From the NCBI GenBank assembly GCA_942493095.1, contig OW818675.1, positions 1,260,001-1,292,000 of the forward strand: DNA of 32,000 bases, read 5' to 3'. Origin of the DNA: Candidatus Electronema halotolerans (GTDB lineage: Bacteria; Desulfobacterota; Desulfobulbia; Desulfobulbales; Desulfobulbaceae). Positions 842-29,036 of the stretch are shown here, one piece after another (within the stretch, counting starts at the first letter, position 1; each line of letters begins with the position of its first letter). Under the pieces are notes generated by a model. The model made no database searches and was not told the origin of the DNA. It saw only the letters and a list, made by a program, of their open reading frames with translations. A program made the translations under genes and the position numbers.

Positions 842-1408
842 TTATAAATTTCTAAAAAATTCTTCGCGTTCAGATTGGGGCATTGCTTTAATTGCTTTCA
901 TTTCATCCGCTGAAAAGACTTGACACCGTACTTCTGCGCTAATACCAACTGAGACTGCAACACCAACAAAAACTTTCTCTAAGAACCGTAAAACGTACTG
1001 ACTGGTCGTACTGCTTGGATTAAGAATAACATGATGAATATTTTCATGAGCGGCTATTTTTTTCGCTCCCTTCTGCAAATCAATGGGCGTAACAACAATC
1101 CCGCCTTGGGCACCTGTATCTTGAATACTGTAGGCAAGTGAGCCAAGTATTGCTTGATTAAGCCGACCTTTTCGATGCTTACATTCAACAATCAGAAAGC
1201 CTTCGCCATTCTTGGAAACACCTTTGGCATCAAGTTCCCAATCCGTGCCAGACGCTCCTGTAACACACTGCTTCCCTTCTACGCATTCAAGGCCAAAGTG
1301 CTCTGCAAATTCATTCAGCAGATACGTTGCAACCTCTTCGTATGATTGCCACGCTTTTTTTTCAGACATTGCCACACCTTCTATCAAATACCATAAATAA
1401 CCAATCAT
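842..1408 (-). CDS. Mrr-like PD-(D/E)xK restriction-endonuclease-fold protein
   Basis: WELDAKGVSKNGEGFLIVECKHRKGRLNQ gives a D...E-x-K nuclease core. It is followed by GGIVVTPIDLQKGAKKIA, as in Mrr_cat-type proteins. An ATGA overlap with the vapC stop (1405-1408) suggests translational coupling. An alternative start is M14 at 1369 (MSEKKAW). Confidence 0.6.
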   Translation of the reverse strand: MIGYLWYLIEGVAMSEKKAWQSYEEVATYLLNEFAEHFGLECVEGKQCVTGASGTDWELDAKGVSKNGEGFLIVECKHRKGRLNQAILGSLAYSIQDTGAQGGIVVTPIDLQKGAKKIAAHENIHHVILNPSSTTSQYVLRFLEKVFVGVAVSVGISAEVRCQVFSADEMKAIKAMPQSEREEFFRNL

Positions 1409-1830
1409 GCAAATGGATTGACTATTTTTGTCCTCTCAAGGACAAAACCATCTTGCATATCTTCGGAATATAAAATGTCTGCGCCGCTTTGGACAGCACA
1501 GACAACAACAAGGCTATCCCAGAAAGAAAAATTATGATTCTCGCGTAGCTCTGAAGATTTTATCAGAATTTCCTTGTCAATCCCTACTACTTCATATCTG
1601 TCATAAAAACTCTGAATAAGTTCTCTCGCTTCTCCCTCGGAAAACTTAACCTTTCTGATAAGATTGGAGCAAACTTCGTTTATTATCTGCGTACTGACCG
1701 CAATTGATTGATTTTGAATCAAAGCTGTTGCGATATTCGCCTTGCGAGCATCTTGTGTCTCGATAAAAGCATACAGCCAGATATTCGAGTCAACAAAGCA
1801 AATCCCGCTTTGTTCATCAGCCACGGTCAT
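1405..1830 (-). CDS. vapC: PIN-domain ribonuclease toxin (VapC family)
   Basis: Acidic PIN signature residues are present in FVDSNIW, IINEV, FWDSL and YSEDM. The size (141 aa) fits. It overlaps the upstream antitoxin ORF by 14 nt. Confidence 0.8.
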   Translation of the reverse strand: MTVADEQSGICFVDSNIWLYAFIETQDARKANIATALIQNQSIAVSTQIINEVCSNLIRKVKFSEGEARELIQSFYDRYEVVGIDKEILIKSSELRENHNFSFWDSLVVVCAVQSGADILYSEDMQDGFVLERTKIVNPFA

Positions 1831-8868: not shown

Positions 8869-9987
8869 TCAGCCGAGCCGGTGCATGAGCCAGAGGGCGG
8901 TGTTCAGAGCTGCACCCTGCTGAATCTGCTCGTTAAGCGAACCAGGTGGGATGACGGCTTTTTCCTTGCTGACTGCTTCCATGAGCAGTTGCCAGCTTTT
9001 TCTGAGCAGGGGCGGCAAGGCAAAGGAGGGTGACTCCTCTGCTCTGCCTGCGCCGGGCAGAAGCAGCTCCATGTCCGGCAGGCCGTCTAAATGCTGGGCC
9101 AGCTCTGCGGCTGCATCGACAAAGTCCGACTCTTGCAGCAGCCCGGCAGCATAGAGCGCGTTCATCGGGTTGAGCGGCTGCGCGGCGAGCAGATTTTGCA
9201 GGCCGTTTTGGCTGAGAACCTTGCGTCCATGCAGCAGGCCAAGACGGAGCTGCTCAGTCTGCCGGGCGGCAGGGCTGGCAGGATCAAAACCCTTGCCCAT
9301 CTCGTTCATCAGCACCGCAGCTTCCGGCAGATTGGCCCGCAGCAGCTGCACACCGGGCAGCCAGCCATCTTCAGCCACGGCAAAAATCTGCGTCTGCCAG
9401 CCCGCCAGCGTGAGCACGAACATTTCGTAAATCTCACCCTGCTCCTCCTCGACCCGCAGACAATAGGTGCCGGGGTTCAGTTCCAGATGCAGAACGCATA
9501 ACCGGCTTTCCGCATTGCAGATGCCGTGCTCCGCCTTGGCCATCAGCCCGCCGTCTAAATTATGCAGTGACACGCCCAGCCAAGGTTGGGCAGCAGCTTC
9601 TGTCAGTCCCCTGAGAACAAGAAAGAACTGACTGCCGTTTCCCGCTCGAAAAGGCGCAGTCTTGGCACGGGATAATTCCTGCGCCGCCTCGCCGTGCTCC
9701 TGTCGCCATGTCATGGTCTGGCGCAGGGGAACTGGGCTGGCAAACTGCACTGCCGGGCCGTCAAAGACCTTGACCGCAGCATCTGCCGGCACTTCGATCA
9801 GGCTGTCGCTCTGCACCTGCCCGACCCGGAAGCGGGCCTTGTACAGCCCCGGCGCAACCATCGCCTCAACACTGCCGATTCCGGCGGCAATTTTCTCAAA
9901 GCGGCGGTCCACCAGAAAAACTTCAGTCAGGCTGTCCGCCGCATTGACTCGGAGAGTCACCATGCTCTCAGACTGTGATCCGCTCAT
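8869..9987 (-). CDS. Hypothetical protein, last gene of the transglutaminase/caspase operon; beta-sandwich (PEGA/CarboxypepD_reg-like) N-terminal region and helical C-terminal region
   Basis: The ORF is long and non-repetitive. AMVAPGLYKARFRV and LELNPGTYCLRV echo LELEPGLYKIAV in the C-terminus of the upstream caspase. The start is uncertain. M26 (9987) has GAGGTG 7 nt upstream and a 20-nt overlap with the caspase gene. M34 (9963) lies 4 nt after the caspase stop. Confidence 0.5.
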   Translation of the reverse strand: MSGSQSESMVTLRVNAADSLTEVFLVDRRFEKIAAGIGSVEAMVAPGLYKARFRVGQVQSDSLIEVPADAAVKVFDGPAVQFASPVPLRQTMTWRQEHGEAAQELSRAKTAPFRAGNGSQFFLVLRGLTEAAAQPWLGVSLHNLDGGLMAKAEHGICNAESRLCVLHLELNPGTYCLRVEEEQGEIYEMFVLTLAGWQTQIFAVAEDGWLPGVQLLRANLPEAAVLMNEMGKGFDPASPAARQTEQLRLGLLHGRKVLSQNGLQNLLAAQPLNPMNALYAAGLLQESDFVDAAAELAQHLDGLPDMELLLPGAGRAEESPSFALPPLLRKSWQLLMEAVSKEKAVIPPGSLNEQIQQGAALNTALWLMHRLG

Positions 9988-11005
9988 TGTTCGGCACCTC
10001 GAAAATTTTCTGGCGGCCTGTGCTGCTGACCGCGATTTTATACAGTCCCGGCTCCAGCTCAAGGCTCAGGCTGGCGGCTGAGGCTTTTTCCTGCCGAATT
10101 TCCTTGAAGTCGCCATTGTAGAGCACCAGCGTTTCCGTGCCGCTGTAGGGCTGGAGATCAACCTGCACTGGCAGAGCTGCGGCCTTTTTCCGCTGAAAAA
10201 AGGTGATGTCGCGGTACGAGTCAAGACGGATTTCCGGGGGTTCAATTGTCACATCTCCGGCAAATTTGGCCAGACTGTTATGAATCTGATTTTTCAGCAG
10301 CCCGCCAGTCACGCGGCCCTGCTCATCCGGGCCGGTCACACGCAGGGCATCCAGAACCGCCTTGGTGAAAATGCCTGACTTTCTGCCGTCAGCAAAGCTC
10401 CGCTCTCTGGCCACTTGCCCCCTGCCCACGGCAAAGGCGTAAAAACAGCGCACTTTGTCCGCTGCCGGGCTGCCCGCGCTGACCACATACTGCGGCTCCC
10501 GGATTGAATGCCACGAGTTGACCGTGCGGCAGCAGTCCATGATTAGGACCAGCTCATCAAAGACCGCATGACGGTGCAGCCATTCCACATAATCTGTGAT
10601 TGCAACATGCCAAGGAAACATCCTTTTTGCATTGGCGGCGTAGAGAGCGGTCTGACTGATGTCACCCGGATCGCCAAAGCCGTGCCCGGCGACAAAAATG
10701 TAAAGCCGTTCGCCCTGCCGTCCCTGCACCCCGTTGACAATGAACGGCTCAAACAGGGCCTCGACCTGATTCGGGATCGGTCGGGCTTCTTCAGCAGAAA
10801 AATCTGAGGAGAGGATGCGCCGGATATTGCTTTCCGGCAGATTGCCGCCTGTCGGGTCGCGCAGCCAGGCATAAAAATCTTCCGCATCATTGACCGGCCC
10901 TTTGAGCGGTGCCAAACCGCTCAGAGGATAGTCGTTGATGCCAATGACAATGGCACAATGCTGCTTATTGGACATCATCCGGCACCTGTGCTTGAATGGA
11001 AACAT
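9968..11005 (-). CDS. Caspase-like (peptidase C14, orthocaspase) protein with C-terminal beta-sandwich domain
   Basis: CAIVIGINDYP...LKGPVNDAEDF, the His context YIFVAGHGFG and the Cys context LVLIMDCCRT give a C14 His/Cys dyad arrangement. Alternative starts are M10/M11 (10978/10975). Confidence 0.8.
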   Translation of the reverse strand: MFPFKHRCRMMSNKQHCAIVIGINDYPLSGLAPLKGPVNDAEDFYAWLRDPTGGNLPESNIRRILSSDFSAEEARPIPNQVEALFEPFIVNGVQGRQGERLYIFVAGHGFGDPGDISQTALYAANAKRMFPWHVAITDYVEWLHRHAVFDELVLIMDCCRTVNSWHSIREPQYVVSAGSPAADKVRCFYAFAVGRGQVARERSFADGRKSGIFTKAVLDALRVTGPDEQGRVTGGLLKNQIHNSLAKFAGDVTIEPPEIRLDSYRDITFFQRKKAAALPVQVDLQPYSGTETLVLYNGDFKEIRQEKASAASLSLELEPGLYKIAVSSTGRQKIFEVPNNERITV

Positions 11006-11056: not shown

Positions 11057-12727
11057 TCAGTTGTTGGCCAATTCGATCAGCCGCTCGACAATGGCGGCCA
11101 ACGGCGCGCTGGAGCCGTTGGAAGCGCTTGCCGCTGCGGACTGCCAGTTTGCAGGCACTGCCTGTCCCTCGGCCCAGGAGCCGCCCGGTTCGTAGGAAGT
11201 CCGCGCCCGGTCGCCCGGCCCCGGAGTCCAGAGGAAGTCAGGATGGCGGTTCAGGTACCATTCTCCGCCAATGATCTTGCCGGAGAAATCCAGCTCCAGA
11301 TCATAGTAATAGCGGACTGTGTCAATCGCATCCGCAGCCGAGCTGTCAACCGTGCTCTGGCTGGGCGCAGTCTCGACCGTGTAGGAGACATCCATAGCAA
11401 TGCCGACCATGCTGTCTGTCTGCGGGCTGCGGTACTTGGCAAAACGGTCATTGCTGAAGCTGCTCTTGGACACCGTGGCCTCTGCCAGACTGTTGCGGTA
11501 CACCATTTCCTTGGGATTGAAATAGTAGTAGCGGTAGCCGACCATGGGCTGGTTCCAGACTTCGTAGTCAAAAGTCGCGTCAATGACCATGCTCCGCCCG
11601 GATGCGCCGATCTGATTGACCACGGCCAGATGCCAGGTGCCGGGATTGGTGTCAAAGCAGCGGTCAGAGAGAATCCGCTTGTTCTGCGGATCAGTCGGCG
11701 GATTTGTTTCATTGCAGCGGCCGCCGATGAATTTGACTTGGGGGCTGACTTTAGCCCAGAGCAAGGAGGCCAGTCCTTTGATGTCAGACGGATAAAAGGT
11801 CAGCCATGTTTGCCCGTCCGCAGCCAGGACTTTGACGGATTTTTGGGGCCGGGCCAGCATGTAGGCGGCTGTCGCCCAGCCGTGGCAGATGCCCATCCAA
11901 GCGGCCACGGAGCCGGATTGTCTGTGATAATATTCACCCTCAGCCCACATTTTTTTGGTCAGGGTGTAGTTGCTGTCGCCGACTAAGATGTCATATTTTT
12001 CCGAAGGCGAAAGCAGATCAATGGCCGCTGCATCGCCGCTGGCCAAAATGCTGGCTGCCGGACGGCTTTCAACATAATCGTTGCATTCCTTCCAGTCTAA
12101 TGAATCAGGAAAGCTGGGATCATCATACCGCTTGCCAAGAATGCCCCGGCAGATGGCCCAGTAGTCACAGGACCACGGCGTGTTCCGCAGCCGCACATTC
12201 CGCAGGCCGCTGCTCTCCATGCTTTGCAGACCGGAGTGGCTGAAGGTGTCCACCAAATTGACGGCCTGATCATTGTAATTCCATGCAGCCCGGCCTGCGG
12301 CATCCTCTTCTGATTCAAGAACCAGCTTGCGCTGCTCGTCGCGGGCCTCCACATAGGCCTTTTCCTCAAGCGCGGCCTGATCAAAAGGTGGCTGCGAGAC
12401 CTCGTTCTCTCCGGCCTGCTCCTTCTGCTTGGGCGGCTGCCGGTCCATGAATGCGCCAATATTGTTGACAAAACTCTGCAAATCCGCATTGACCGCCTGT
12501 TCGTCATTCTCAGTCTCAGACCCGGACGCAGCCGCAGCCGGTTTCGGTTCTGCTTCGTGACTGTGCGGATGTTCGTGATCATGATCATGAACATGGTCAT
12601 GCCCGCAGCAGGAATTGCCATGATCATGACTGTGATCAGCAGGTTTGGAGCTGCTGTCACAGCTGCAGCCACAGCTTTTGAAGAAGTTTAACAGAGGGCA
12701 GTTGTGTTTTTTTGACGAGTTGGACAT
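11057..12727 (-). CDS. GP42-type 'transglutaminase elicitor' family protein with His/Cys-rich N-terminal tract
   Basis: VWNQPMVGYRYYY (11522-11560) matches the oomycete Pep-13 peptide VWNQPVRGFKVYE at 7 of 13 positions, including W2 and P5 (11 of 13 if conservative M/V, Y/F, R/K and Y/V replacements are also counted). The candidate nucleophile context is WMGICHGWATAAY (11876-11893). The N-terminus reads MSNSSKKHNCPLLNFFKSCGCSCDSSSKPADHSHDHGNSCCGHDHVHDHDHEHPHSH. I chose the start at 12727 because AGGAGG lies 5 nt upstream; the track start at 12769 lacks this. Confidence 0.7.
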   Translation of the reverse strand: MSNSSKKHNCPLLNFFKSCGCSCDSSSKPADHSHDHGNSCCGHDHVHDHDHEHPHSHEAEPKPAAAASGSETENDEQAVNADLQSFVNNIGAFMDRQPPKQKEQAGENEVSQPPFDQAALEEKAYVEARDEQRKLVLESEEDAAGRAAWNYNDQAVNLVDTFSHSGLQSMESSGLRNVRLRNTPWSCDYWAICRGILGKRYDDPSFPDSLDWKECNDYVESRPAASILASGDAAAIDLLSPSEKYDILVGDSNYTLTKKMWAEGEYYHRQSGSVAAWMGICHGWATAAYMLARPQKSVKVLAADGQTWLTFYPSDIKGLASLLWAKVSPQVKFIGGRCNETNPPTDPQNKRILSDRCFDTNPGTWHLAVVNQIGASGRSMVIDATFDYEVWNQPMVGYRYYYFNPKEMVYRNSLAEATVSKSSFSNDRFAKYRSPQTDSMVGIAMDVSYTVETAPSQSTVDSSAADAIDTVRYYYDLELDFSGKIIGGEWYLNRHPDFLWTPGPGDRARTSYEPGGSWAEGQAVPANWQSAAASASNGSSAPLAAIVERLIELANN

Positions 12728-13024
12728 GATCTCCTCCTTGAATTGGATGGTGCTGCCGAAAAACTGCATAATTTGAATCTACTCCAAAATCAGCAGATCG
12801 CCAAGGCATTGCCTGAAAAATATCATAGTTCATCCTTGAGGCGGCTGAAAGGGCCTGCGGCGGCAAAAACAGGAATTTTTTCCGCAATGCGAGGAGGCAA
12901 GAGCGCTGTTCAACCTTGCCCGGATTTCTTAAATCTGGTAAAAGAATCCGCAGGATGACACGGACAGCCTCTTTTGAGAGGTATTTTTATAAAATACAAG
13001 ATGTTGCGTGACAAGCGGCAATAA

Positions 13025-13373
13025 GTGAAATTGACAAATTTTCTTCAAGAAACACAGAATTCATTAAAAAACAACTACCTTGCCGATGACAGGCCGTGGG
13101 TTGTCGCTTTTTCCGGCGGCAAGGACTCGACATTGGTTTTGCAACTTGTTTATGAGATGCTGCTTGAACTTGACGACCAAGCTGTGAAACCAGTGCATAT
13201 CGTCTGTTCAGACACCCGCGTGGAGCCGCCCAATGTTGCTGAATATCTTCACAACAGTCTGCGGCAGCTGGAAGAACATGCAAAGCAATGCCGTTTTCCT
13301 CTCTTTGTTCATATTGTTCAGCCAACACCTGATGAAAGTTTCTGGTTTATTCTGGTTTAATGTGATAGGGAAA
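13025..13373 (+). pseudogene. dndC: 5' remnant of DNA phosphorothioation gene dndC (PAPS-reductase-fold sulfurtransferase)
   Basis: DDRPWVVAFSGGKDSTLVLQLVYEML...VHIVCSDTRVEPPNV...PDESFW has the P-loop SGGKDS and SDT.VE motifs of DndC N-termini. A 10-bp tandem duplication (tctggtttat/tctggtttaa, 13341-13360) shifts the frame. Without it the reading continues FWFNVIGK, then ends. About 110 of roughly 500 codons remain. Confidence 0.75.
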
Positions 13374-13903
13374 GTTGCATGATGGATGGAATTAACAGAT
13401 ATTTTAAATTGTTTTATAATCTCCGGGCGGATACGAGCAAGAGACGATGGTCTGAAGCAACTTGCTGCCGGGCACCGCACAAGCCTCTTTTCTTGCTTTC
13501 TATTTTTGATCTGATAGCATCAGGTGGAATAGTTGACAATTTTATAACGCCTTCGTTTGAACTCTCTGATTCTTTCGCAGCATACTGGTCAGCTGTCATG
13601 CCTCTTGGAAGTACCGGTTTAATGTGTTTGCCATTTTACCATCTTGCCACATCTGGATTTTGGCACCTTATACCGCAGCCAGATATGTTAGATGAACGTG
13701 GCCGTTCTATCAAATCAATGAAGCGTTTTACTTTTTTCTATCAGGGAGCCAAATTTAGTGATGATTTGTTTTTGTTGTTGAAAAACGAGCATTTCTTAGA
13801 AAAGCTGAGAACAATCTTGATTAAAACTTATTTTTCTCCTGATGCTCAGATAGCTTTAGCGAAGCAATCAATAATAAATTTAGAGTCATCGAAATATAGC
13901 TGT

Positions 13904-14091
13904 GTGGATTCAACTCGCAAGTGCAACTTTTTTTGGTTATCCAAAAAGCATAGGTTGGCTGGCACTTTGAATACTTCATGTAAATTTTCAATTATTTTCT
14001 CTTAGTTAGCGACAAAAGCAAAGTTGTGACACTCCCGTAACTGCCTTTTCTTGCAACCAAAAAAAGTTGCACTTGGAACTTGAATTCACCC
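13904..14091. mobile_element. MITE-like element (about 188 bp) with 35-bp terminal inverted repeats
   Basis: 13904-13938 (gtggattcaactcgcaagtgcaactttttttggtt) matches the reverse complement of 14055-14089 at 31/35 positions. It is flanked by a direct repeat (c)tgt at 13900-13903 and 14091-14094. Excision restores the host reading frame. Confidence 0.65.
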
Positions 14092-14443
14092 TGTAAAATA
14101 CTTGGGACAAATGAAATAATAAAAAATTATGAATTAACAATAGAAGATGAAGGTGTAAAAAATAAAATTCGGAGTCGAGGATTTCGCAAAGCCATTGTTA
14201 AATTGTATGAGCACCGTTGTGCTCTATGCGGCCTTCGCATCTTGACACCAGAAGGGCATACAGTTGTTGAAGCTGCTCATATTATACCTTGGAGTGCAAG
14301 TAAAAATGATCAACCACAGAACGGCATGGCCTTGTGTCGATTATGTCATTGGTTTTTTGACGAAGGTTTGATGGGAGTAGGAAAGTGTTATGAGATTCTG
14401 ATTTCACCTCTTGTCCGTCAGGGTGACAATTATCCCGGCCATA

Positions 14444-14569
14444 TAGCGGTTATGGGTTGAACGGCTATCAAATATCTTTGCTTTGTCAAAATTTTTGTAT
14501 GTATAAATTCAACAAGTTAAATTAAGCATCAATATATCAGGGTGATCACCATTCGGCGTGTAACCGCTA
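14444..14569. mobile_element. 126-bp MITE derived from an IS630-family element, TA target duplication
   Basis: The termini are tagcggtta.../...taaccgcta, flanked by TA (14442-43 and 14570-71). The left end matches the left end of the IS630 copy at 24285 at 23/30 positions. The right end matches at 21/29. Excision plus one TA restores the host frame. Confidence 0.7.
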
Positions 14570-14837
14570 TATAGAGACTATGACCGGTCGGGGCATTTTA
14601 AAACCTGAGAAAAAGATGTTCTGGCCTGATTTAGAATATTTAGAAATCCATAGAAAAGAAATTTTCAGAAAAAATTGATGTTATAAGACTCAATCATTAA
14701 ATTCATAGTTACTCACTTATCGAAAATCCTTGCAGAGGTATATTTTATAACTCGCCTATTACAAAAAAAATGACGGTCAACCTCCTGATATACGATATGA
14801 ACTGATGCTGACCACTTTTGCCGTCACCGTGTACAAG

Positions 14838-16022
14838 ATGAACCCGCTTTTCCGCCGTTTTAGCGACCAGCTCCATGACCTTGACAGCCAGAACCTGCGC
14901 CGCAGGCTCGTGCCGGTGCGACCTCTTGCCAAAGGACTGATTGAGGTTGACGGCAGGCAGCATCTGAATCTCTCCGGTAACGACTATCTCGGCCTTGGCA
15001 GTGATGCCGTCCTGCTGGATGCGTTTTATGCGCATCTTCATAATGAAGACAGGCTGCAATGCTGCGCTCCGGGCAGCGGCGCATCCCGTCTGCTCACTGG
15101 CAGCCGGGCAAGCTGTCATCAGTTGGAGGACTCGTTGGCGCAGCTTTACGGTAAGGACGGCGCACTGCTCTTCAACTCCGGCTGGCAGCTCAACAGCGGC
15201 CTGCTGCCAGCTTTGCTCCGCAAGGGCGATCTGGTCTTGGCGGACAAACTCTGTCATGCCAGCCTGATCGACGGCCTGCGCCTCTCTGCGGCTAAGGTCA
15301 TCCGCTATCCCCATCTTGATTATGAGCGACTGGAAGAGCTGCTCCGGCAGCACAGCAGCCAGTCCGGCATGATCTTTGTGGTCACGGAATCCATATTTTC
15401 CATGGACGGCGACTGCGCTGACCTGCGGCTGCTGGCAGCCTTGCGGGACAACTACGGGGCCGTGCTCTATGTGGATGAGGCCCATGCGGTCGGAGTGCGC
15501 GGCGAACGCGGCTTGGGCCTGGCTGAAGAGCAGGGTGTCCTTGCGCAGATTGATCTGCTGATCGGCACCTTTGGCAAGGCGTGGGCTGGACAGGGGGCGT
15601 TCGTGGTCGGCAGCCGGATGCTCTGCGATTTTTTGATCAACATGGCCCGTTCCTTTATTTTCACCACCGCCCTGCCGCCGGTCAGCATTGCCTGGCTCAA
15701 CTTCATTCTGCCCAAGATAGTTGCCATGCGTTCCGAGCGGCAGCATCTGGCCAAGCTGGCGGAACAGCTTCGCCGCAGGCTGCACCACCTGAATATTACG
15801 ACTGGCGGCGCAAGCCAGATTGTTCCAGTCCTGCTGGGCGAGGCGGCGGCGGCCCTTGCGGCAGCAGAACGGCTGCGCAGCCAAGGCTGGTGGGTGCAGG
15901 CGGTCAGGCCACCGACCGTGCCGCCCAACACAGCCCGGCTCCGGCTTTCTTTGAGCGCGGCCATGCGCGAGGAGCAGCTGCGCAGCTTGGCCGACCAGCT
16001 TGCCGCCGCAGTCCTTTCCTGA
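14838..16022 (+). CDS. bioF: 8-amino-7-oxononanoate synthase (alpha-oxoamine synthase family)
   Basis: NLSGNDYLGLG, GSGASRLLTG, ESIFSMDGDCADL, YVDEAHAVGVRGERG and the PLP-lysine context GTFGKAWAGQG are present. I set the start at MNPLFRRF (14838) rather than 14805. Confidence 0.85.
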   Translation: MNPLFRRFSDQLHDLDSQNLRRRLVPVRPLAKGLIEVDGRQHLNLSGNDYLGLGSDAVLLDAFYAHLHNEDRLQCCAPGSGASRLLTGSRASCHQLEDSLAQLYGKDGALLFNSGWQLNSGLLPALLRKGDLVLADKLCHASLIDGLRLSAAKVIRYPHLDYERLEELLRQHSSQSGMIFVVTESIFSMDGDCADLRLLAALRDNYGAVLYVDEAHAVGVRGERGLGLAEEQGVLAQIDLLIGTFGKAWAGQGAFVVGSRMLCDFLINMARSFIFTTALPPVSIAWLNFILPKIVAMRSERQHLAKLAEQLRRRLHHLNITTGGASQIVPVLLGEAAAALAAAERLRSQGWWVQAVRPPTVPPNTARLRLSLSAAMREEQLRSLADQLAAAVLS

Positions 16023-16180: not shown

Positions 16181-19060
16181 ATGATTATCTTTAACTCCAA
16201 ACAGTTTTCAACTGTTCTCTTTGCTGTATTCTTTGCATATCCTTCGCTGACTACCGCGAAAATCCTGCTGGTGCCGAATGAATATCCGACCATCAGCAAG
16301 GCAATGCAGGCTGCCGGGCCGAATGACACAGTTCGGGTGGCGGCGGGCGCCTACCCTGACAACGTCATCATGCGGCCCGGCGTGACCTTGGAAGGCGGCT
16401 GGGACAGCACTTTTCAGCAGCATGAGCCGACAGTGAACAGAACAATCATTGATGGCAGCATGCGGGGCGGCTATGTGGTCTTTGGCGCGGACAAGGCCGT
16501 GCTGGACGGCTTTCTCATCACTGGCGGCAAACCGCCGATGATGATGCCGGATTTGGATGTCGGGCCAGGGGTGTATTGCGACTCCGCCTCCTTCACGGTG
16601 CGGAACAGCTTCATCACTGGCAACAATACGGCTGGCATCTATGCCCGCAACTGTCAGCTCTCCGCCACAGGCAATGTCATTGCCGCCAATGGCAGGGCAG
16701 GCATTTTTCTTGAAGATGCCTGCGCGGCGGAGATCAAGGGCAACCTGATCAGCCGCAATCTCTGGGCAGGCATCAATGTTGGCGGCAAGGCGCCTTCAAA
16801 AGTGGATATTGCCAACAACGCGGTGTACAGCAATCAGAAGGCGGGCATCAATGTCGCCTTTGCTCAAGGTTCAGTCAGCAACAATCTGATTCACAAAAAC
16901 AGAGAGGCTGGAGTCCGCTGCGGGCTGGCACCCATGCAGATCATCAACAACACCATTGCTGACAATGGCTTGGCCGGTGTTTCCACGGCTGAATCCGCCG
17001 GACTGCTGACAGCGGCTGCGCCAGCAGGCCAATCTGGCAAGACAGATACATCCGCCACGTCAAAGCTGCCGATCATTAAAAACAATATCATTGCCAACAA
17101 TGGGCAGGCTGGCATCAAGTCCTACGGCAGCGGCTACACCTACAACCTGCTTTACGGCAACAACAAAGTGGAAGGCTTTTTCCCGAATTATCTCTGGTAT
17201 ATCCGCCTCCAGCTCGGCGGCTACGAAGATCAGGCCACCTTTGAGAAGACCAAGAACATTCTTGCTGCGCCGCTCTTTGTCAATCCTGCCCAGCATGACT
17301 ACCATCTTCGGCCCGGCTCGCCTGCCATTGACCAAGGCGACCCGGAGCAGCAATACAACGACAAGAATTTTGGCCCTTCTCTTGGTGCTGACCGCAATGA
17401 CATGGGAGTCTATGGCGGGCCAGGCACTGTGGCCGAGAAGAGGCCGCCCAATCAGCCGCCCCAAGCTGGCATTGAGCCGCTCAAGAAGCAGGTTTATGCT
17501 GGTGACAAAGTGGTGCTCAACGGCGCAGTCAGCCGTGATCCGAACGGCGATGAGATTCACTATCAGTGGCGGCTGACCGGCAAGCCCTTCCAAAGCACGG
17601 CTGCCTTGAAGCCGGAAAAGGACGGCACTTGCGCCTTCACCCCTGACAAGGGCGGGCAGTATGCGGTCCAGCTCACAGTCACAGACCGCTGGGGCATGCA
17701 AGGCAGGCCGGTTCGGCTGACCATCAATGCTGACCCGGACAAACCGCCCACAGCCAAGATCAGCAAGCCAATGGGACCGGTCAAGGTCGGCGAGGCGGTC
17801 AAACTGTCCGCCATTGACAAGAAAAAACAAAATGGCAGCGAGCTGACTTTTTCTTGGATGATGCTCAGGCGGCCCAGCGACAGTCAGGCCCTGCTTGATG
17901 ATGCGCAGGCCGAGCGGCCCAGTTTCACGCCGGACGCGCCCGGCTGCTACACCATGCGCCTGACCGTGGCCAATGGCAAGAAGTCGAGCCAGCCGGACAC
18001 CGTGCATTTCTGCACCCAGGAAAGCCGGGTGCCGGGCCGCCGGTCAGTGCCGGATGAATACCCGACCATTCAGGCGGCCATTGATGCTGCCAAGGCAGGC
18101 GAGGACATCCTTGTCCAGCCAGGCACCTACCGTGAGCACCTGATTGTTGACAAACCGGTCAATCTGATCGGCGCAGGCAGGCCAAGACCGGTGATTGACG
18201 GCGGCAGCAAGGAGGGTGACGAGGCCGCAGTCTTTGTCTGTTATTTGGACAATACTGCGCAGGGCCGGATTCAAGGCTTCAAAGTCACAGGCGGCGGCAC
18301 TGGTCAGTATGGGCACGGCATCCAGATCCTCAACTCCTCGCCGGAGATTGTTGACAATGAGATTGTCGGCAACCAGCATGTGGGCGTGGGCATCCACGGG
18401 CAGTACAAATTCACCAAGGACACTAGGATTCACCACAACGACATCCATGACAACGCCATTGGCGTGAGCAACGGCTTGGGCGCAGGCGGCATGATCTACA
18501 ATAATGCCATCTACAACAACAAAGTGACCGGCATTGGTGTGCGCGGTTTGGCAAGACCGATAGTCCGCAAGAACAATCTCTACGGCAACTACATCGGCAT
18601 TGGGGTCCGGGAAGAAGCGTATCCGCAGGTTGAAGACAACATTGTCCAAGACAATGTGGTGGGCATGGCAGTCAATCCCGGCGTTGCCGGAGCGATTTAT
18701 GCGGAAAAGAACAAGATCACGCTGCGGAACAATCAGATACTCAGCAACCGGCAGGCAGGCATCTTTATTTCCTCGCTCAACAAAAGCGAGGTTGTGGCGC
18801 AGGGAAATGCCATCCGAGGCAACAGCGAGGCGGCTGACCGCGACAGCCGCACCGGCGGAGTGGTGAGCGGCTATCCGCATGAAGCCTTGGTCAAAGTCCT
18901 GCTCAACAGCAACATGGTCAGCGGCAACAACGGGCGGGATGTTCAGCTCTACAAGGAACTGGGCGAATCTGCCGGAACCATTGGCAGTTCCGCTGGCCGC
19001 AAGCCCGACTTCCAAGGCATGGGAATGCCTATGGGCGGCCCAAGCGGCATGGCGCAGTGA
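16181..19060 (+). CDS. Secreted protein with two right-handed parallel beta-helix (PbH1/NosD-like) modules separated by PKD/Ig-like domains
   Basis: A signal-peptide-like N-terminus (MIIFNSKQFSTVLFAVFFAYPSLTTA). Two module heads (VPNEYPTISKAMQAAGPNDTVRVAAGAY and VPDEYPTIQAAIDAAKAGEDILVQPGTY). Many N-x-I/V-x-x-N beta-helix rungs (NNTAGIYA, NGRAGIFL, NQKAGINV and others). Two YQW/FSW Ig-like segments lie in the middle. Confidence 0.75.
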   Translation: MIIFNSKQFSTVLFAVFFAYPSLTTAKILLVPNEYPTISKAMQAAGPNDTVRVAAGAYPDNVIMRPGVTLEGGWDSTFQQHEPTVNRTIIDGSMRGGYVVFGADKAVLDGFLITGGKPPMMMPDLDVGPGVYCDSASFTVRNSFITGNNTAGIYARNCQLSATGNVIAANGRAGIFLEDACAAEIKGNLISRNLWAGINVGGKAPSKVDIANNAVYSNQKAGINVAFAQGSVSNNLIHKNREAGVRCGLAPMQIINNTIADNGLAGVSTAESAGLLTAAAPAGQSGKTDTSATSKLPIIKNNIIANNGQAGIKSYGSGYTYNLLYGNNKVEGFFPNYLWYIRLQLGGYEDQATFEKTKNILAAPLFVNPAQHDYHLRPGSPAIDQGDPEQQYNDKNFGPSLGADRNDMGVYGGPGTVAEKRPPNQPPQAGIEPLKKQVYAGDKVVLNGAVSRDPNGDEIHYQWRLTGKPFQSTAALKPEKDGTCAFTPDKGGQYAVQLTVTDRWGMQGRPVRLTINADPDKPPTAKISKPMGPVKVGEAVKLSAIDKKKQNGSELTFSWMMLRRPSDSQALLDDAQAERPSFTPDAPGCYTMRLTVANGKKSSQPDTVHFCTQESRVPGRRSVPDEYPTIQAAIDAAKAGEDILVQPGTYREHLIVDKPVNLIGAGRPRPVIDGGSKEGDEAAVFVCYLDNTAQGRIQGFKVTGGGTGQYGHGIQILNSSPEIVDNEIVGNQHVGVGIHGQYKFTKDTRIHHNDIHDNAIGVSNGLGAGGMIYNNAIYNNKVTGIGVRGLARPIVRKNNLYGNYIGIGVREEAYPQVEDNIVQDNVVGMAVNPGVAGAIYAEKNKITLRNNQILSNRQAGIFISSLNKSEVVAQGNAIRGNSEAADRDSRTGGVVSGYPHEALVKVLLNSNMVSGNNGRDVQLYKELGESAGTIGSSAGRKPDFQGMGMPMGGPSGMAQ

Positions 19061-21107: not shown

Positions 21108-22616
21108 TTGACAAAATCAACAGGTAAAGATTATGCTGCCGTTATGAATTTCAGTGTTCCTAGTGAAAAAGAAGTCCGTGCTGCATACGCAGAAGGCGAA
21201 GAAGCGGTCGTCGCCCTGTTTAGCAGTATAACTGCGCAGGTTGAAAACCTCGCCGCTCAGTCAGCCAAGCAGTCCGAGATATTGAAGGATTTGCAGGCCC
21301 GGCTGTCGAAAAACAGTCGGAACAGCGGGAAACCGCCTTCGAGCGATGGATACGGTAAAGCGAAGCGAACGGAAAGTCTGAGAGAGTCCGGCAGGAAGCC
21401 GAACGGCGGCCAGCCAGGTCATCAAGGGCATACTCTTGAGCGGTCTGCGGCGCCGGATTCTACGGAGAGGTATAAATCCGAGGAATGCGCGGCTTGCAAA
21501 ATGTCGCTTGCGGATGTCGTCGCTGTCGGAGAGGAGGAACGGCAGGTTTATGATATTCCGGCGATTCGGATTGAAGTGACCTCGCATCGAGCGGAAATAA
21601 AAATCTGTCCCGGCTGCGGCACGGAAAACAGAGGCAAATTCCCGGAAAACGTCGGACAGGGCATCCGTTACGGCACGGGGGTGAAAACTTGGGCGGCATA
21701 TTTCGCGAACCAGCATCATATTCCGCTTGAACGGGCTGCGCAGATTATCGAAGACCTGACCGGGCATTCCGTCTCCGAGGGTTCGCTGCTGAAGGCATCG
21801 GAAGAGCTTTGCGGATGCGTGCGTCCTTCAACGGAAGCAGTCGAAAAACTGCTCATGAATACCGATGTGTTACATGCCGATGAAAGCGGAGTCCGCGTGA
21901 AAGGGAAGCTGCACTGGCTGCATGTCGCTTCGACGAACTGCCTCACCCATTATTCGGTGCATGAAAAACGGGGAAAAGAGGCGATGGACGCAGCGGGAAT
22001 CCTTGGAAAGTTCACAGGAACAGCGACGCATGATCATTGGAAATCGTACTTCAGCTATGAAAACTGCGGTCATGCGCTGTGCAATGCGCATCATCTCCGG
22101 GAACTCAAGTTCATAGAAAAACAGTATGGACAAGTTTGGGCCGGCGAGATGGCCGAGCTGTTGCTTGAAATAAAAGGCGCGGCTGAAAAGCTGAAGCCGG
22201 ATCGGGACGGCTTCGCGCCGGAGAAGATCGAAGAATTTGAGCGGCGGTATGATGAAATCGTCCGACGGGGTTTTGCCGACAATCCGTTCACTCCGCCTAA
22301 GGAGAAAAAACGAGGACGGGCGAAGAAGACTCCGCCGCTCAATTTGCTGACACGGATGCGTGATTACAGGGCGGAGACCCTCGCATTCATGTATGATTTC
22401 CGGGTTCCGTTCGACAACAACGCGGCGGAAAGAGATGTGCGGATGATCAAGGTCAAGCAGAAGGTTTCCGGCTGCTTCCGAACACTTGAGGGGGCAGAAC
22501 GATTCGCCTGTATCCGGGGATATATCTCCACGGTCCGTAAAAATTCAAGAAACATTTTTGAAGCGATCAAAGATGCTTTCCTTGGAAGTCCTTTTATCCC
22601 CGATTCCGCAGTATAA
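21108..22616 (+). CDS. IS66-family transposase
   Basis: A zinc-finger region (CAACK...CPGCG), then HADESGVRVKGKLHWLHV, ATHDHWKSY, CNAHHLRELKF and PFDNNAAERDVRMIKVKQKVSG are present. The start is either TTG 21108 (track) or the in-frame ATG at 21144. Confidence 0.85.
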   Translation: MTKSTGKDYAAVMNFSVPSEKEVRAAYAEGEEAVVALFSSITAQVENLAAQSAKQSEILKDLQARLSKNSRNSGKPPSSDGYGKAKRTESLRESGRKPNGGQPGHQGHTLERSAAPDSTERYKSEECAACKMSLADVVAVGEEERQVYDIPAIRIEVTSHRAEIKICPGCGTENRGKFPENVGQGIRYGTGVKTWAAYFANQHHIPLERAAQIIEDLTGHSVSEGSLLKASEELCGCVRPSTEAVEKLLMNTDVLHADESGVRVKGKLHWLHVASTNCLTHYSVHEKRGKEAMDAAGILGKFTGTATHDHWKSYFSYENCGHALCNAHHLRELKFIEKQYGQVWAGEMAELLLEIKGAAEKLKPDRDGFAPEKIEEFERRYDEIVRRGFADNPFTPPKEKKRGRAKKTPPLNLLTRMRDYRAETLAFMYDFRVPFDNNAAERDVRMIKVKQKVSGCFRTLEGAERFACIRGYISTVRKNSRNIFEAIKDAFLGSPFIPDSAV

Positions 22617-22662: not shown

Positions 22663-23099
22663 GTCAGGCTGAGTAGTTACAGAGCTTGTTTGATGCAGTG
22701 GCTGCTGGTTCTTCTGAGCTGGAGGCAGCAGCCAAGTTTGTTCGGGGCATTGCCCGCAATGCGTGCCGTTTCACCTGAACACTAATTTTTCCGATAATTT
22801 ACGAGCTGCTTTCCCTGCGAGGTGATTCGACTGGGCCGTTTTGTGCTGTTGGCAGGATTGCGGATGGACGAGTAAAAAATACCTGCGATGTAAAGCAGAT
22901 ACCTTTTTCACAACTGACGCTGCACTTGCTGTACAACGGTCTGTCAATAATCCTTTAAAAAAGGAGGAGGCATCCTTGCAATAGGCATCCTTTTTTTGCT
23001 ATAAAAAGATATGACCTTATTGGTTTTATGTCGCATAGCAGCATAAAAAAGAAATGCTAAGCCTTTTAACAAAAAAAGGCGCAGCTCAAGGAGAGATTG

Positions 23100-24287
23100 A
23101 TGAATAAAAAGACCTTAACAGCATTATGTTTGGCATCACTGATGCTTACAGCTAAAATGGCGCAAGCGCAAGAAGAGCAGGCTCCTTCATGTGAAACTGC
23201 TTATGCGTTTGGTTCTAAAACCTTCAGCGATATTGGCTTTACTCGTTGGGGGTGGGAGATAGTTCTACAGGGAAATGAGTTTGTAAGCACCAAAGTTTAT
23301 GCTGGTGCGGGACAGACTGACATCTTGAAAGGAACGTATGTAGGGGATCTCGAAGTTACTAGGGACAACGATCTTGTCACCTTTCAACTCCAGATGCTGG
23401 ATGGCTTCTCTGTAAGCGAAACACATATTTATGTGGGAACTTCTGATCTCTCGAAATCAGCACCTGGGCAATATGCCAATCTTACTGAAGGTAAGATCAA
23501 TTCTTTTGGCAATGGCCTGTTTAAAGTTGAACTTAATGATACTGTCACCGAGGGCGCGAAGTTATATGTTGTCGTTCATGCAGTAGTTTGTACTGGTGGA
23601 GGGGATCCAAATAATGGTGGAGACGATCCAAATGCCGAATGTGACCCAGCAGACAGCCCGTGGAAAGGAATTTGGGACAGTGCTGTAGAGTACAAGGCTG
23701 ACGATGTTGTTGAATATGAAGGCAGCAGCTATGTCAACGTTTGCTGTGATCCGCAAACAGCAGGCACAGCACCTCCTGATGATTTGTTTAATTCCGTCAC
23801 TAACGAAGGTTGTTGGAAACTCGTAGCTGAGAAAGGCGATACTGGAGCGACAGGTGAAACAGGTCCGACCGGCGAGCAAGGTGAAGTAGGTCCCGAAGGT
23901 CCGCAAGGGCCAATAGGCCCCGCTGGCCCGCAAGGTCTGAAGGGTGATAAAGGTGACAAGGGCGACACCGGCGATCAGGGAGAAGTAGGTCCCGAAGGCC
24001 CGACCGGTGCTCAAGGCCCGCAGGGCGAAGTAGGCCCGATTGGCCCGCAAGGTCTGAAGGGTGATAAAGGTGACAAGGGCGACACCGGCGATCAGGGAGA
24101 AGTAGGTCCCGAAGGCCCGACCGGTGCTCAAGGCCCGCAGGGTGAAGTAGGCCCGATTGGCCCGCAAGGTCCCGAAGGCCCGACCGGTGCTCAAGGCCCG
24201 CAGGGCGAAGTAGGCCCGATTGGCCCGCAAGGTCTGAAGGGTGATAAAGGTGACAAGGGCGACACCGGCGATCAGGGAGAAGTATAG
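23100..24287 (+). CDS. 5' fragment of the collagen-like gene (signal peptide, N-terminal domain, first 50 G-X-Y triplets), terminated by a TAG supplied by the IS end
   Basis: This is the track ORF 23097..24287. ATG 23100 is preferred over TTG 23097. The stop TAG at 24285-24287 is the first three bases of the IS630 terminus. Confidence 0.85.
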
Positions 24288-25329
24288 CGGTTTCGTATTG
24301 AACAGATATCAAACCCAGCAATGACGGAAAAACGATTTGATTGATTTTGACTTAACCGTTTTCAGAGATATATCATAAGCTTCCATCAGCTCACGCTCTG
24401 TTCTCGGCTTCAATTTTCTTATAGTGTTTTTCATTACTGACCAGCAGTATTCAATAGGGTTCAGTTCAGGACGATAAGGAGGGAGGAAAATGATCTTCGC
24501 TCCTGTACTTCTGATCAAAGCGAGAGCTTCTTTGTTTTTATGAGGACTGGCATTGTCAAGAACGACTGTCTTGCTGCTGTCAAGATATTTCAAAAGATAA
24601 TTTTTTATATAGAAATAAAAGACATCTCCTGTCATGGTGCCTTTAAATTTCATGCACTTCAATATTTTTCCAAACTTTACAGCTCCTATCATGCTTATTC
24701 TTTTCCCTTTACCTGAAGGTCTTTTTGAAAAAGCTCTTGTTCCTTTTCTTGATCTTGCAAATTTTCTCGACATGTTCAAACAGCATCCTGTCTCATCAAT
24801 AAAGATGAAATTCTTTTTGTCAGCCTCGAGCAGGCCTGCAAGGTAATTAACTGTCTTTGCTATATTTTCCTCTTTATACGCCGCCGGATCGCGGAAAGTT
24901 TTTTTTTCCGGCTGATTTTCAGTCTGGCGAGAGTTTCGCACAGCGTGGAAGGTGCTATTTTTAAATTGAATTTCTCGTATAAGCGATCACACATCTCTTC
25001 AAGCGTAAGATCGTTCTCGTCATCAATCATGCTGGTCAGAAAAGGCATATGAACTTCCTTGATTTTCGGAGGATTTCCGCCTTTATGAGGCTTCGGCTCA
25101 AGCGTCCCCTCAGTCTTCCATCTTTTTACAAGACTTTGAACAAATTTATAGGAAACGTCAAGCAAATCTGCAGTTCTTCTCAATGATTTCTGTTTTTCAT
25201 AAACAGACAAGACTTTCTTTCTGAAATCAATAGAATAAATCATGGCAGACCTCCGTGTGTAAAAAAATGGAAAAAACAGACAAGTCAAGTTTAATCTTTT
25301 TCTGATAACCATACAACCTGAAACCGCTA
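24285..25329 (-). mobile_element. IS630-family (Tc1/mariner-like) insertion sequence, 1045 bp, TA target-site duplication
   Basis: The termini are tagcggtttc.../...gaaaccgcta: 10 bp perfect, about 27 bp imperfect. TA occurs at 24283-84 and 25330-31. The uninterrupted array motif gagaagTAggtccc is reconstituted on excision. The element is visibly AT-rich relative to the host repeat. Confidence 0.85.
24309..25243 (-). CDS. IS630-family DDE transposase, encoded in two overlapping frames joined at an A9 run
   Basis: orfA (25243..24860) carries the HTH part, MIYSIDFRKKVLSVYEKQKSLRRTADLL, with GGAGG 6 nt upstream. orfB (24941..24309) carries FIFIDETG, VVLDNASPH and PPYRPELNPIEYCW, the DD(35)E triad. 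A -1 shift on AAAAAAAAA (24899-24907) would give ...KISRKKKTFRDPAAYKEE... and a 311-aa fusion. Confidence 0.8.
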
Positions 25330-25331
25330 TA

Positions 25332-28300: not shown

Positions 28301-29036
28301 GGGCGACACTGGCGATCAGGGTCTGCCTGGCAACGACGGTGCTCAAGGCCCGCAGGGTGAAGTAGGCCCGATTGGCCCGCAAGGTCTGAAGGGTGATAAA
28401 GGTGACAAGGGCGACACCGGCGATCAGGGAGAAGTAGGTCCCGAAGGCCCGACCGGTGCTCAAGGCCCGCAGGGTGAAGTAGGCCCGATTGGCCCGCAAG
28501 GTCTGAAGGGTGATAAAGGTGACAAGGGCGACACTGGCGATCAGGGTCTGCCTGGCAACGACGGTGCTCAAGGCCTGCAGGGTGAAGTAGGCCCGATTGG
28601 CCCGCAAGGTCCCGAAGGCCCGACCGGTGCTCAAGGCCCGCAGGGCGAAGTAGGCCCGATTGGCCCGCAAGGTCTGAAGGGTGACAAGGGCGACACTGGC
28701 GATCAGGGTCTGCCTGGCAACGACGGTGCTCAAGGCCCGCAGGGTGAAGTAGGCCCGATTGGCCCGCAAGGTCCCGAAGGCCCGACCGGTGCTCAAGGCC
28801 CGCAGGGTGAAGTAGGCCCGATTGGCCCGCAAGGTCTGAAGGGTGATAAAGGTGACAAGGGCGACACCGGCGATCAGGGAGAAGTAGGTCCCGAAGGCCC
28901 GACCGGTGCTCAAGGCCCGCAGGGTGAAGTAGGCCCGATTGGCCCGCAAGGTCTGAAGGGTGATAAAGGTGACAAGGGCGACACTGGCGATCAGGGTCTG
29001 CCTGGCAACGACCGGTGCTCAAGGCCCGCAGGGTGA
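25332..29036 (+). pseudogene. Middle fragment of the collagen-like gene (409 G-X-Y triplets, phase 0), ending at a frameshift-induced TGA
   Basis: ggt ccc gaa ggc ccg acc ggt gct caa... reads [42 protein letters not shown]... The sense frame contains no ATG, GTG or TTG codon. After the extra C at 29012/13 it reads NDRCSRPAG, then TGA at 29034-29036. Confidence 0.8.

Follow-up and report, generated by a model that had tools for sequence, protein, structure and literature searches.

A transglutaminase gene heads a three-gene operon

We analysed a stretch of 32,000 nucleotides (nt) from the genome of Candidatus (Ca.) Electronema halotolerans, a member of the Desulfobulbaceae (contig OW818675.1, positions 1,260,001 to 1,292,000; hereafter the window). 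Within it lies a gene for a transglutaminase (TGase) related to GP42, the enzyme of the oomycete Phytophthora sojae, and this gene heads an operon that continues with a caspase-like protease of family Peptidase_C14 (here C14) and a further protein, UNK. All three genes are read from the minus strand, and coordinates are given on the forward strand throughout (Table 1). The C14 gene begins 51 nt downstream of the TGase stop. An earlier reading of the window, made from its letters alone and referred to below as the original prediction, described the TGase sequence and placed its open reading frame accurately, but mentioned neither the minus-strand orientation, nor the conservation of the first 17 residues, nor the operon.

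Table 1 Features of the TGase operon in forward-strand coordinates of the window
Feature	Position	Strand	Basis or remark
TGase coding sequence (GP42 family, PF16683), operon gene 1	11057..12727	-	Open reading frame, 556 residues
Caspase-like protease (Peptidase_C14), operon gene 2	9968..11005	-	PF00656 E=1.1e-8; PADLOC 'caspase' E=1.3e-15
UNK, operon gene 3	8869..9987	-	372 residues; start overlaps C14 stop by 20 nt
Shine-Dalgarno sequence AAGGAGGAG	12731..12739	-	Strong; 3 nt 5′ of the ATG at 12727
Conserved N-terminal peptide, residues 1-17 (MSNSSKKHNCPLLNFFK)	12677..12727	-	Alignment of relatives and leader comparison
His/Cys/Asp-rich tract, residues 18-58 (SCGCSCD...HSHDHGNSCCGHDHVHDHDHEHPHSHE)	12554..12676	-	Composition
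Ala/Glu-rich linker, residues 59-82, between leader and conserved core	12482..12553	-	Composition
Conserved N-terminal segment, residues 83-150, before the part equivalent to mature GP42	12278..12481	-	Invariant columns
Catalytic Cys281-His282 ('CH' motif in WMGICHGW)	11882..11887	-	Alignment to 3tw5
Invariant D359-T-N-P362, candidate third catalytic residue	11642..11653	-	Aligned with GP42 R-D-L-N-P
Pep-13-equivalent segment VWNQPMVGYRYYY, residues 390-402	11522..11560	-	Aligned to GP42 VWNQPVRGFKVYE

The start of the TGase is secure because it is preceded by a Shine-Dalgarno sequence and is kept in orthologues. Long orthologues all begin at the equivalent methionine (MSxxxKKHNCP... or MATPExKHNCF...), the region just before it translates as 'EE[IA]M' in orthologues too, as in the Shine-Dalgarno stretch here, and several of them carry stop codons a few codons further 5′. 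An in-frame ATG at 12769 was rejected as a start, having no Shine-Dalgarno sequence and no backing from orthologues; it would add only MQFFGSTIQFKEEI, with no hydrophobic segment, and the better start exposing a signal peptide that the original prediction had allowed for was not found at this gene.

From this start the protein runs through a leader of about 80 residues into a conserved core. Short homologues that have no leader start at about residue 72-83 of the window TGase, typically with "MS..EEQINADLQAF". The first part of the core, residues 83-150, contains a low-confidence loop (~105-150) in an AlphaFold2 (AF2) model, with the per-residue confidence score (pLDDT) below 50 at residues 109-113, 126-145 and 147-149, and K100, R133 and R146 in this segment are invariant in an alignment of 23 bacterial sequences (the window TGase and 22 relatives). 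By extrapolation of the respective alignments, position 1 of the Pfam profile and residue 1 of the 3tw5 chain of GP42 both map to about residue 150-155.

The predicted enzyme retains the GP42 core motifs

The window TGase is a member of a known family. It matches the Pfam family TGase_elicitor (PF16683) over profile positions 26-345 of 361 and scores 121.2 bits (E=5.5e-35) where the gathering cut-off is 25 bits. A phmmer search of the PDB returned a single match, GP42 of P. sojae (3tw5_A, E=4.2e-28). The AF2 model, built on 23 sequences, has a predicted template modelling score (pTM) of 0.77 and a confident core, and when it was compared with the PDB by Foldseek, 3tw5_A was again the only match with E<=0.001 (E=1.6e-14, probability 1.00, target-normalised TM score 0.66), with identity of about 20% over the structural alignment.

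The residues expected of a Cys-His enzyme are in place. C281, H282, D359-T-N-P362 and V390-W-N-Q-P394 do not vary among the 23 aligned sequences, and WMGICHGW pairs with WFGISHAW of 3tw5, with Cys281 opposite a Ser. We take 3tw5 to be a C290S mutant, which would explain the aligned Ser, and the catalytic pair of GP42 is presumably Cys290-His291. Within the papain-like superfamily, GP42 is unusual in that its catalytic Cys and His are direct neighbours, the 'CH' motif (PMC10318531). D359 (in DTNP, opposite RDLNP of GP42) and N392 (in VWNQP) are both invariant and are candidates for the third catalytic residue, for which an Asp on a non-core helix or an Asn on β-2 would be expected. By sequence and predicted fold, the gene encodes a GP42-fold, papain-superfamily Cys-His enzyme whose recognisable core motifs are all intact, which bears out three expectations of the original prediction: a significant PF16683 match, a GP42-type enzyme and, for the catalytic triad, its Cys-His part. 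Two further cysteines, C338 (nt 11712-11714, minus strand) and C357 (nt 11655-11657, minus strand), are invariant in all 23 bacterial sequences and are Phe and Tyr in GP42; they may form a metal or redox site specific to the clade.

The original prediction also drew attention to a motif resembling Pep-13, the GP42 peptide, and had its position exactly right. In the HMMER alignment VWNQPMVGYRYYY stands opposite VWNQPVRGFKVYE of GP42 with 7 of 13 residues identical and W2 and P5 both kept, and a wider alignment sets EVWNQPMVGYRYY opposite EVWNQPVRGFKVY of GP42, which is Pep-13. V390, W391, N392, Q393 and P394 are unchanged in the 23 bacterial sequences, W391 and P394 being W2 and P5 of Pep-13, and the segment falls on a confident β-strand of the AF2 model (E393-404). 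W2 and P5 are reportedly critical in Pep-13, and the segment is said to be required for the transamidase activity of GP42. On the alignments, the likeness is one of homology and not of chance, because the two proteins align column for column and VWNQP is invariant in 23 sequences. The elicitor framing of the motif does not hold: the segment belongs to the conserved core of the fold and stays unchanged in bacteria of sediments and of the sulfur cycle, which have no contact with plants. Pep-13 corresponds to one conserved strand in the core of a fold that is old in bacteria, and the resemblance seen here is not related to elicitation or to plants.

Relatives are widespread in bacteria

To place the TGase among bacteria, we scanned one genome per GTDB species, which gave at least 589 loci with relatives, and read the neighbourhoods of the best 77. 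Genomes with a close relative of the window TGase number at least 589, each representing one GTDB species, and a protein search yielded 2381 clusters (90% identity) at E<=1e-5. The best 77 of the at least 589 loci encode proteins with 49-76% identity to the window TGase and come from Ca. Electronema, Ca. Electrothrix, many Thiotrichaceae (Thiothrix, Thiolinea, Leucothrix, Thiofilum and Cocleimonas), Crocosphaera, Thiocystis, Desulfobacca, Methylococcales and myxobacteria. Among the matches listed, the nearest named genome is Ca. Electronema sp. KV (76% identity), and from about residue 83 onward the core retains 49-62% identity across phyla. Electrothrix copies already bear the NCBI name "Transglutaminase elicitor".

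These numbers alter the picture of the family in two respects. A review holds that GP42 homologues occur only in oomycetes and some Vibrio (PMC4915311); this published distribution is outdated and far too narrow. Conversely, the suggestion that a copy in this genomic background is in itself notable falls away, given the at least 589 species genomes, the 2381 clusters and the Electrothrix copies that carry the name already. Our literature search found no paper on non-Vibrio bacterial members of the PF16683 family and nothing linking cable bacteria or orthocaspases with transglutaminase, and all of the "transglutaminase elicitor" papers that it found deal with oomycetes. What is new here is a large bacterial clade without a secretion signal, the linkage of its enzyme to a caspase-like protease and a new partner, and a leader specific to cable bacteria.

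The TGase is linked to a caspase-like protease and a partner protein

The second and third genes of the operon form a tightly coupled pair. C14 carries the expected motifs, with its His in AGHG (H108) and its Cys in MDCC (C158/C159), and ends in a β-sandwich-like tail. Orthocaspases are specific for Arg and Lys. UNK has no Pfam or PADLOC match, and none of its 64 detected homologues has a Pfam domain. Its AF2 model (pLDDT 87) comprises two β-sandwich domains and a helical C-terminal domain, and assignment to a family by fold was abandoned, since the Foldseek matches were at the level of single domains with low TM scores (Ig-like, pilin, TIE-adhesin). The 20-nt overlap of the C14 and UNK genes recurs in Electronema KV, Electronema VV and Electrothrix aarhusensis (L001, L003 and L004), where the order TGase-C14-UNK is kept and the flanking genes are unrelated.

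The linkage extends through the cable bacteria and beyond them. The three-gene operon was found in every cable-bacterial genome sampled, and in the genome scan C14 and UNK follow the TGase at 17 of 17 leader-bearing cable-bacterial loci. Outside this group, C14-UNK adjoins a leaderless TGase in Crocosphaera (in the order C14-UNK-TGase), in Thiocystis (convergent) and in Desulfobacca.

Cable bacteria also carry a second, leaderless paralogue of the TGase. In Electrothrix and E. nielsenii it is a fourth gene after UNK, of about 489 residues (L004, 12098-13567; also L011, L015-L018, L020, L021, L027, L036 and L037). In other Electronema the short paralogue lies at an unrelated locus (L019, L022, L023, L025 and L030), and there is none in this window.

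The TGase is predicted to be cytoplasmic

Characterised members of the family are extracellular, and we inspected hydropathy, twin-arginine (RR) motifs and N termini for signs of export. The window TGase has no hydrophobic N-terminal segment (maximal Kyte-Doolittle mean 0.96 over 10 residues within the first 70), no transmembrane segment (maximal mean 1.15 over 19 residues across the whole protein) and no RR motif within the first 60 residues. Likewise, a signal peptide is present in 0 of the 22 aligned relatives, which come from cable bacteria, Thiotrichaceae, Thiocystis and Crocosphaera and mostly lack any N-terminal extension, and C14 and UNK show no signal peptide and match no secretion-system family. 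The original prediction had recorded the missing signal peptide correctly but regarded it as an oddity of this gene; it is a property of the bacterial group, because all 22 aligned relatives share it. Since a signal peptide and a transmembrane segment are missing from the window TGase and from these relatives alike, we predict a cytoplasmic enzyme, in contrast to the secreted one of oomycetes.

A disordered leader carries a conserved tip

The leader is found only on the operon-linked TGase paralogue of cable bacteria. It is predicted to be disordered, with pLDDT of 26-31 over residues 1-70 and a short helix only at residues 13-17. A comparison of 17 long orthologues from genome loci together with the 23-sequence alignment resolves it into three parts: a conserved tip, a spacer of free composition and a junction to the conserved core.

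Conservation within the leader is confined to the first 17 residues (KKHNCPLLNFFK). The tip follows the pattern M-[SA]-x(3-4)-K-H-[NDK]-C-[PF]-[LI]-[LF]-[ND]-[FL]-[FLI]-K in nearly all long forms of Electronema and Electrothrix and is slightly diverged in two Electrothrix (L015 and L016); all long forms from cable bacteria retain K-H-x-C...L-N-x-x-K. It appears to be private to these enzymes. A metagenome-wide scan for the back-translated tip gave 12 matches, of which 6 are the N termini of long TGases and 6 lie outside open reading frames, as expected of chance; no further copy of the motif occurs in about 1 Mb of the relatives' loci; and a phmmer search with leader residues 1-82 against 1.84 billion representatives returned 0 matches. 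The leader as a portable module was rejected on these grounds.

Composition sets the spacer apart. In the window TGase its 41 residues include 11 His, 5 Cys and 6 Asp as well as CGC and CC-G-H motifs, and it is followed by the Ala/Glu-rich linker, much as the original prediction had it in describing a His/Cys-rich tract with an acidic linker. That account also portrayed the leader as a metal-binding-looking element of 55 residues; the composition stands, but the leader is longer and its His tract is not conserved, as the number of His residues varies from 1 to 31 across orthologues. The spacer of most Electronema-type genomes contains 8-31 His and 5-6 Cys, that of Electronema PJ has no His run and keeps CGCGC, and the Electrothrix spacers are acidic and rich in Ser and Pro, with 1-2 His. 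Against NCBIfam the leader gave only compositional, non-significant resemblances to UreE, RcnA, the SlyD tail and the HypB prefix (E 0.2-0.9; scores of about 11 bits against cut-offs of 30-237), and against the PDB nothing better than E=1.1. A weak 6-nt repeat, TGATCA x4.3 (score 38), underlies part of the His-Asp run, which is suggestive of expansion of the tract by slippage and does not demonstrate it.

The His tract is, judged from these comparisons, a dispensable and variable add-on that resembles nickel-chaperone tails and not a conserved functional element, because its His count ranges so widely and the tract is absent from Electronema PJ and all Electrothrix. It is probably a lineage-specific metal-binding embellishment that expands easily.

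Thiothrix relatives (P0067 and P0118; locus L006) have no N-terminal leader and carry instead a C-terminal Pro/Thr-rich spacer with an amphipathic tail (LPWWRRLLNALFGG / LTWWERLLAALRGGR). Here too a short peptide sits on a disordered leash, in the same design but at the opposite end of the protein.

The TGase may be the effector of a caspase-governed module

The C14-UNK pair keeps other company elsewhere. In Roseobacter it occurs without a TGase nearby. In Thiocystis (L008, 4526-6001, minus strand) and in one metagenome contig (L099, 3382-4959, plus strand) a protein of 491 or 525 residues, respectively, is encoded upstream of C14-UNK; the two copies are 41% identical and have weak α/β-hydrolase matches at about residues 296-399. 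We considered whether they were divergent TGases and rejected this, as they do not match the TGase alignment profile and are weakly α/β-hydrolase-like; the family may be an alternative effector of the C14-UNK pair. A further locus (L100) has a weakly zincin-like protein beside C14-UNK.

A constant protease with enzymes that appear interchangeable would follow the logic of protease-effector modules. In the systems described by Kaur et al. 2020, a caspase-superfamily domain is always neighboured by an α/β-hydrolase gene (PMC7159879), and Evans et al. 2025 report a caspase-like protease that cleaves an α/β-hydrolase zymogen after Arg and so unleashes a death effector (PMC12642450). By analogy, we propose a caspase-governed module with the GP42-type TGase as its effector. 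The TGase would carry out intracellular acyl transfer, most likely Gln-Lys cross-linking of proteins, and the co-encoded Arg/Lys-specific protease would license or target it. The protease could cut at K100, R133 or R146, in the flexible conserved loop that directly precedes the counterpart of mature GP42. UNK, the β-sandwich partner, could serve as a scaffold, a regulator or a substrate; the conserved N-terminal tip, held on a flexible leash, could dock or tether the enzyme; and the His/Cys tract would be an optional embellishment binding divalent metal (Ni/Zn/Co), outside the catalytic mechanism.

These elements are not equally firm. We hold the descriptive part (the enzyme, the operon and the leader) with high confidence, whereas licensing by the caspase, which is proposed by analogy, is tentative. 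The explanation as a whole, in which a cytoplasmic GP42-type enzyme is the effector of a caspase-governed cross-linking module, has in our estimate a probability of about 0.5.

Several observations weigh against it. Most of the best 77 loci, including those of Thiotrichaceae and myxobacteria and the short Electronema paralogues, have no caspase within 6 kb, so that the enzyme can function with no protease gene beside its own, and genomes of this kind retain the candidate cleavage residues as well. None of the three operon proteins has a sensor domain (STAND NTPase or the like). PADLOC recognises neither the TGase nor UNK, so no known defence system was found for either, and it matches C14 through a generic caspase model. 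The α/β-hydrolase and zincin matches of the alternative neighbours fall below Pfam thresholds (E 1e-3 to 1e-2). Activity, cleavage and localisation of the bacterial clade members are predictions from sequence, with which non-classical export would also be compatible.

Alternative explanations

The TGase could instead be a stand-alone cytoplasmic housekeeping or structural cross-linker, acting for example on cytoskeletal or storage structures, its place beside a caspase being a lineage-specific accident. The many loci with no caspase within 6 kb fit this explanation, as does the extreme conservation of the core across phyla, which is what an autonomous enzyme would show, and so does the leaderless paralogue that cable bacteria keep away from the caspase. 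An accident is nevertheless hard to square with the recurrence of the adjacency in four unrelated lineages with differing gene orders (Desulfobulbaceae, Cyanobacteria, Chromatiaceae and Desulfobacca). The adjacency moreover persists in Electronema and Electrothrix despite completely different flanks, with short intergenic gaps, all genes on one strand and the downstream pair translationally coupled. We regard this explanation as possible and rather doubtful.

The His/Cys tract could itself be the key novelty, a domain like those of HypB, SlyD and UreE that binds Ni (or Zn/Co) and serves for metal regulation or as a nickel buffer in an organism whose need for nickel is high. Its composition and its CGC and CC-G-H motifs invite this reading; its only database resemblances, non-significant as they are, are to nickel-handling proteins; the CGCG element is present across the whole Electronema lineage, including members that have lost the His run; and the conductive fibres of cable bacteria have a Ni-S cofactor, as cited in PMC12163305. 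Yet the His number varies from 1 to 31 between orthologues, and Electronema PJ and all Electrothrix do without the tract in an otherwise unaltered operon. The searches revealed no significant relationship to a metal-binding family, the region is predicted to be disordered, and the TGATCA repeat hints at slippage-driven expansion rather than selection. A central role for the tract is doubtful.

Nor need the enzyme be a transglutaminase in vivo. A papain-like peptidase, deamidase or amidase could use the same Cys-His centre: GP42 itself belongs structurally to the papain-like cysteine peptidase superfamily (PMC10318531), the transamidase activity of the bacterial members is predicted, identity to GP42 is low in the structural alignment, and the other enzymes found beside C14-UNK look hydrolytic. 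This is unlikely, as all motifs shared with the one characterised member, a transglutaminase, are retained, the Pep-13 segment included, and we found no feature that would distinguish a hydrolase.

Very unlikely, finally, is an extracellular or surface GP42-like Ca-dependent TGase that leaves the cell non-classically and whose His/Cys leader would bind metal and aid export or anchoring. In its favour, characterised family members are extracellular (PMC4915311), filamentous or multicellular taxa with elaborate envelopes are prominent among the closest relatives (cable bacteria, Thiothrix, Leucothrix and myxobacteria) and the conserved tip might be a targeting signal of a kind not yet recognised. 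Against it, the TGase lacks a signal peptide, a Tat motif and a transmembrane segment, none of the aligned relatives has an export signal and most lack an N-terminal extension, C14 and UNK have neither signal peptide nor secretion-system match, and the tip, unlike a general export signal, is not common to other protein families.

Other features of the window

Directly upstream of the operon lies a patch of low GC content (13000-15000; 40% versus ~57-60%) with a truncated PP-loop/PAPS-reductase-like open reading frame (13025-13360), an unassigned one (13379-14005) and one for an HNH_2 endonuclease (14080-14460); it looks like a decayed island of DNA-modification or restriction type. A second such patch (842-1830, minus strand; 42%) holds an Mrr_cat restriction-endonuclease-like and a PIN-domain open reading frame and is inserted beside ETF, acyl-CoA dehydrogenase, fabH and plsX genes. 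On the plus strand, 16181-19060 encodes a 959-residue protein with a right-handed β-helix (NosD/DUF1565-like) and PKD domains, probably a surface protein.

The far end of the window is repetitive. A tandem array of about 6 kb (25330-31460, plus strand) with periods of 99, 108 and 117 nt has a plus-strand consensus of collagen-like G-X-Y and is probably part of a giant gene running past the window end; the minus-strand open reading frames at 25327-31515 (2062 residues), 25227-28949 and 28991-31486 were discarded as antisense artefacts of the repeat. An open reading frame at 23097-24287 (plus strand) matches Pfam Collagen too, and this first collagen-repeat frame is flanked by an IS66-family transposase (21108-22616, plus strand) and a DDE_3 transposase (24309-24941, minus strand).

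Discussion

The window TGase shares with GP42 of P. sojae (3TW5) the Pfam family, the fold, the adjacent Cys-His pair, the VWNQP core and D-x-N-P. It differs in sequence, with about 20% structural-alignment identity, in having no signal peptide where GP42 is secreted, and in its additional features: the conserved segment 83-150, C338 and C357, the disordered leader, the caspase operon and the absence of any link to plants. Bacterial members of the same family had been described in marine Vibrio (Reiss et al. 2011, as summarised in PMC4915311), and according to that summary these homologues are the basis of the published view that the family is common to oomycetes and bacteria.

The operon resembles known protease-effector modules (PMC7159879, PMC12642450) in the tight linkage of a caspase-family protease gene to an enzyme gene, in an apparently variable enzyme slot, filled here by a TGase and elsewhere beside C14-UNK by α/β-hydrolase-like or zincin-like proteins (on weak matches), and in the prominence of taxa of multicellular habit among the carriers sampled. 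Unlike those modules, it has no fused or adjacent sensor, its third, β-sandwich protein is an obligate partner of the protease, and activation by cleavage is here a prediction. The GP42-type TGase is not named among the effector families in the literature that we found on such modules.

Activation of transglutaminases by proteolysis has precedents in the pro-enzyme of Streptomyces microbial TGase (MTG), in factor XIII, which is cleaved by thrombin, and in GP42, which is made as a precursor. Like these zymogens, the window TGase has an N-terminal region before the catalytic domain, an adjacent protease gene and Arg/Lys in a loop near the N terminus of mature GP42. Unlike it, MTG and factor XIII have folds of different families, and inhibition by, or removal of, the window N-terminal region is conjectural. 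The leader, for its part, is like the HypB, SlyD and UreE tails and the RcnA loop in its HxH/HD repeats, its CGC and CC motifs and its terminal, disordered place, but its matches to them are non-significant, the tract is unconserved among orthologues, and it is attached to a TGase and not to a metallochaperone.

A bolder extension of the proposal, which we consider quite unlikely, is an apoptosis-like "kill and fix" module of multicellular bacteria. Damage or infection would lead the caspase to activate the TGase, which would cross-link cellular proteins, perhaps polymerising the β-sandwich partner, and the outcome would be a dead, mechanically intact cell; the Ni-chaperone-like leader of Electronema-type species would provide a further control by metal. 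Cable-bacterial ghost cells lose their cytoplasm and keep envelope integrity and conduction, and the 2025 study of these cells lists caspase-domain genes as present and awaiting function (PMC12163305). If true, such a module could explain the ghost cells and would parallel the joint action of caspase and transglutaminase in animal apoptosis and cornification.

The His/Cys leader is the least important part of the system, possibly a natural metal-binding tag and a marker of Electronema-type genomes. Of wider consequence is the large, highly conserved and signal-less bacterial clade, which changes how one should discuss where the oomycete enzyme and the Pep-13 pattern came from. If the proposed role is true, the effectors of protease-linked modules in bacteria would gain a novel type in the transglutaminase. 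In cable bacteria, the fixed linkage to a caspase offers a testable candidate for the question raised in 2025 of whether ghost-cell formation or filament breakage is under genetic control (PMC12163305).

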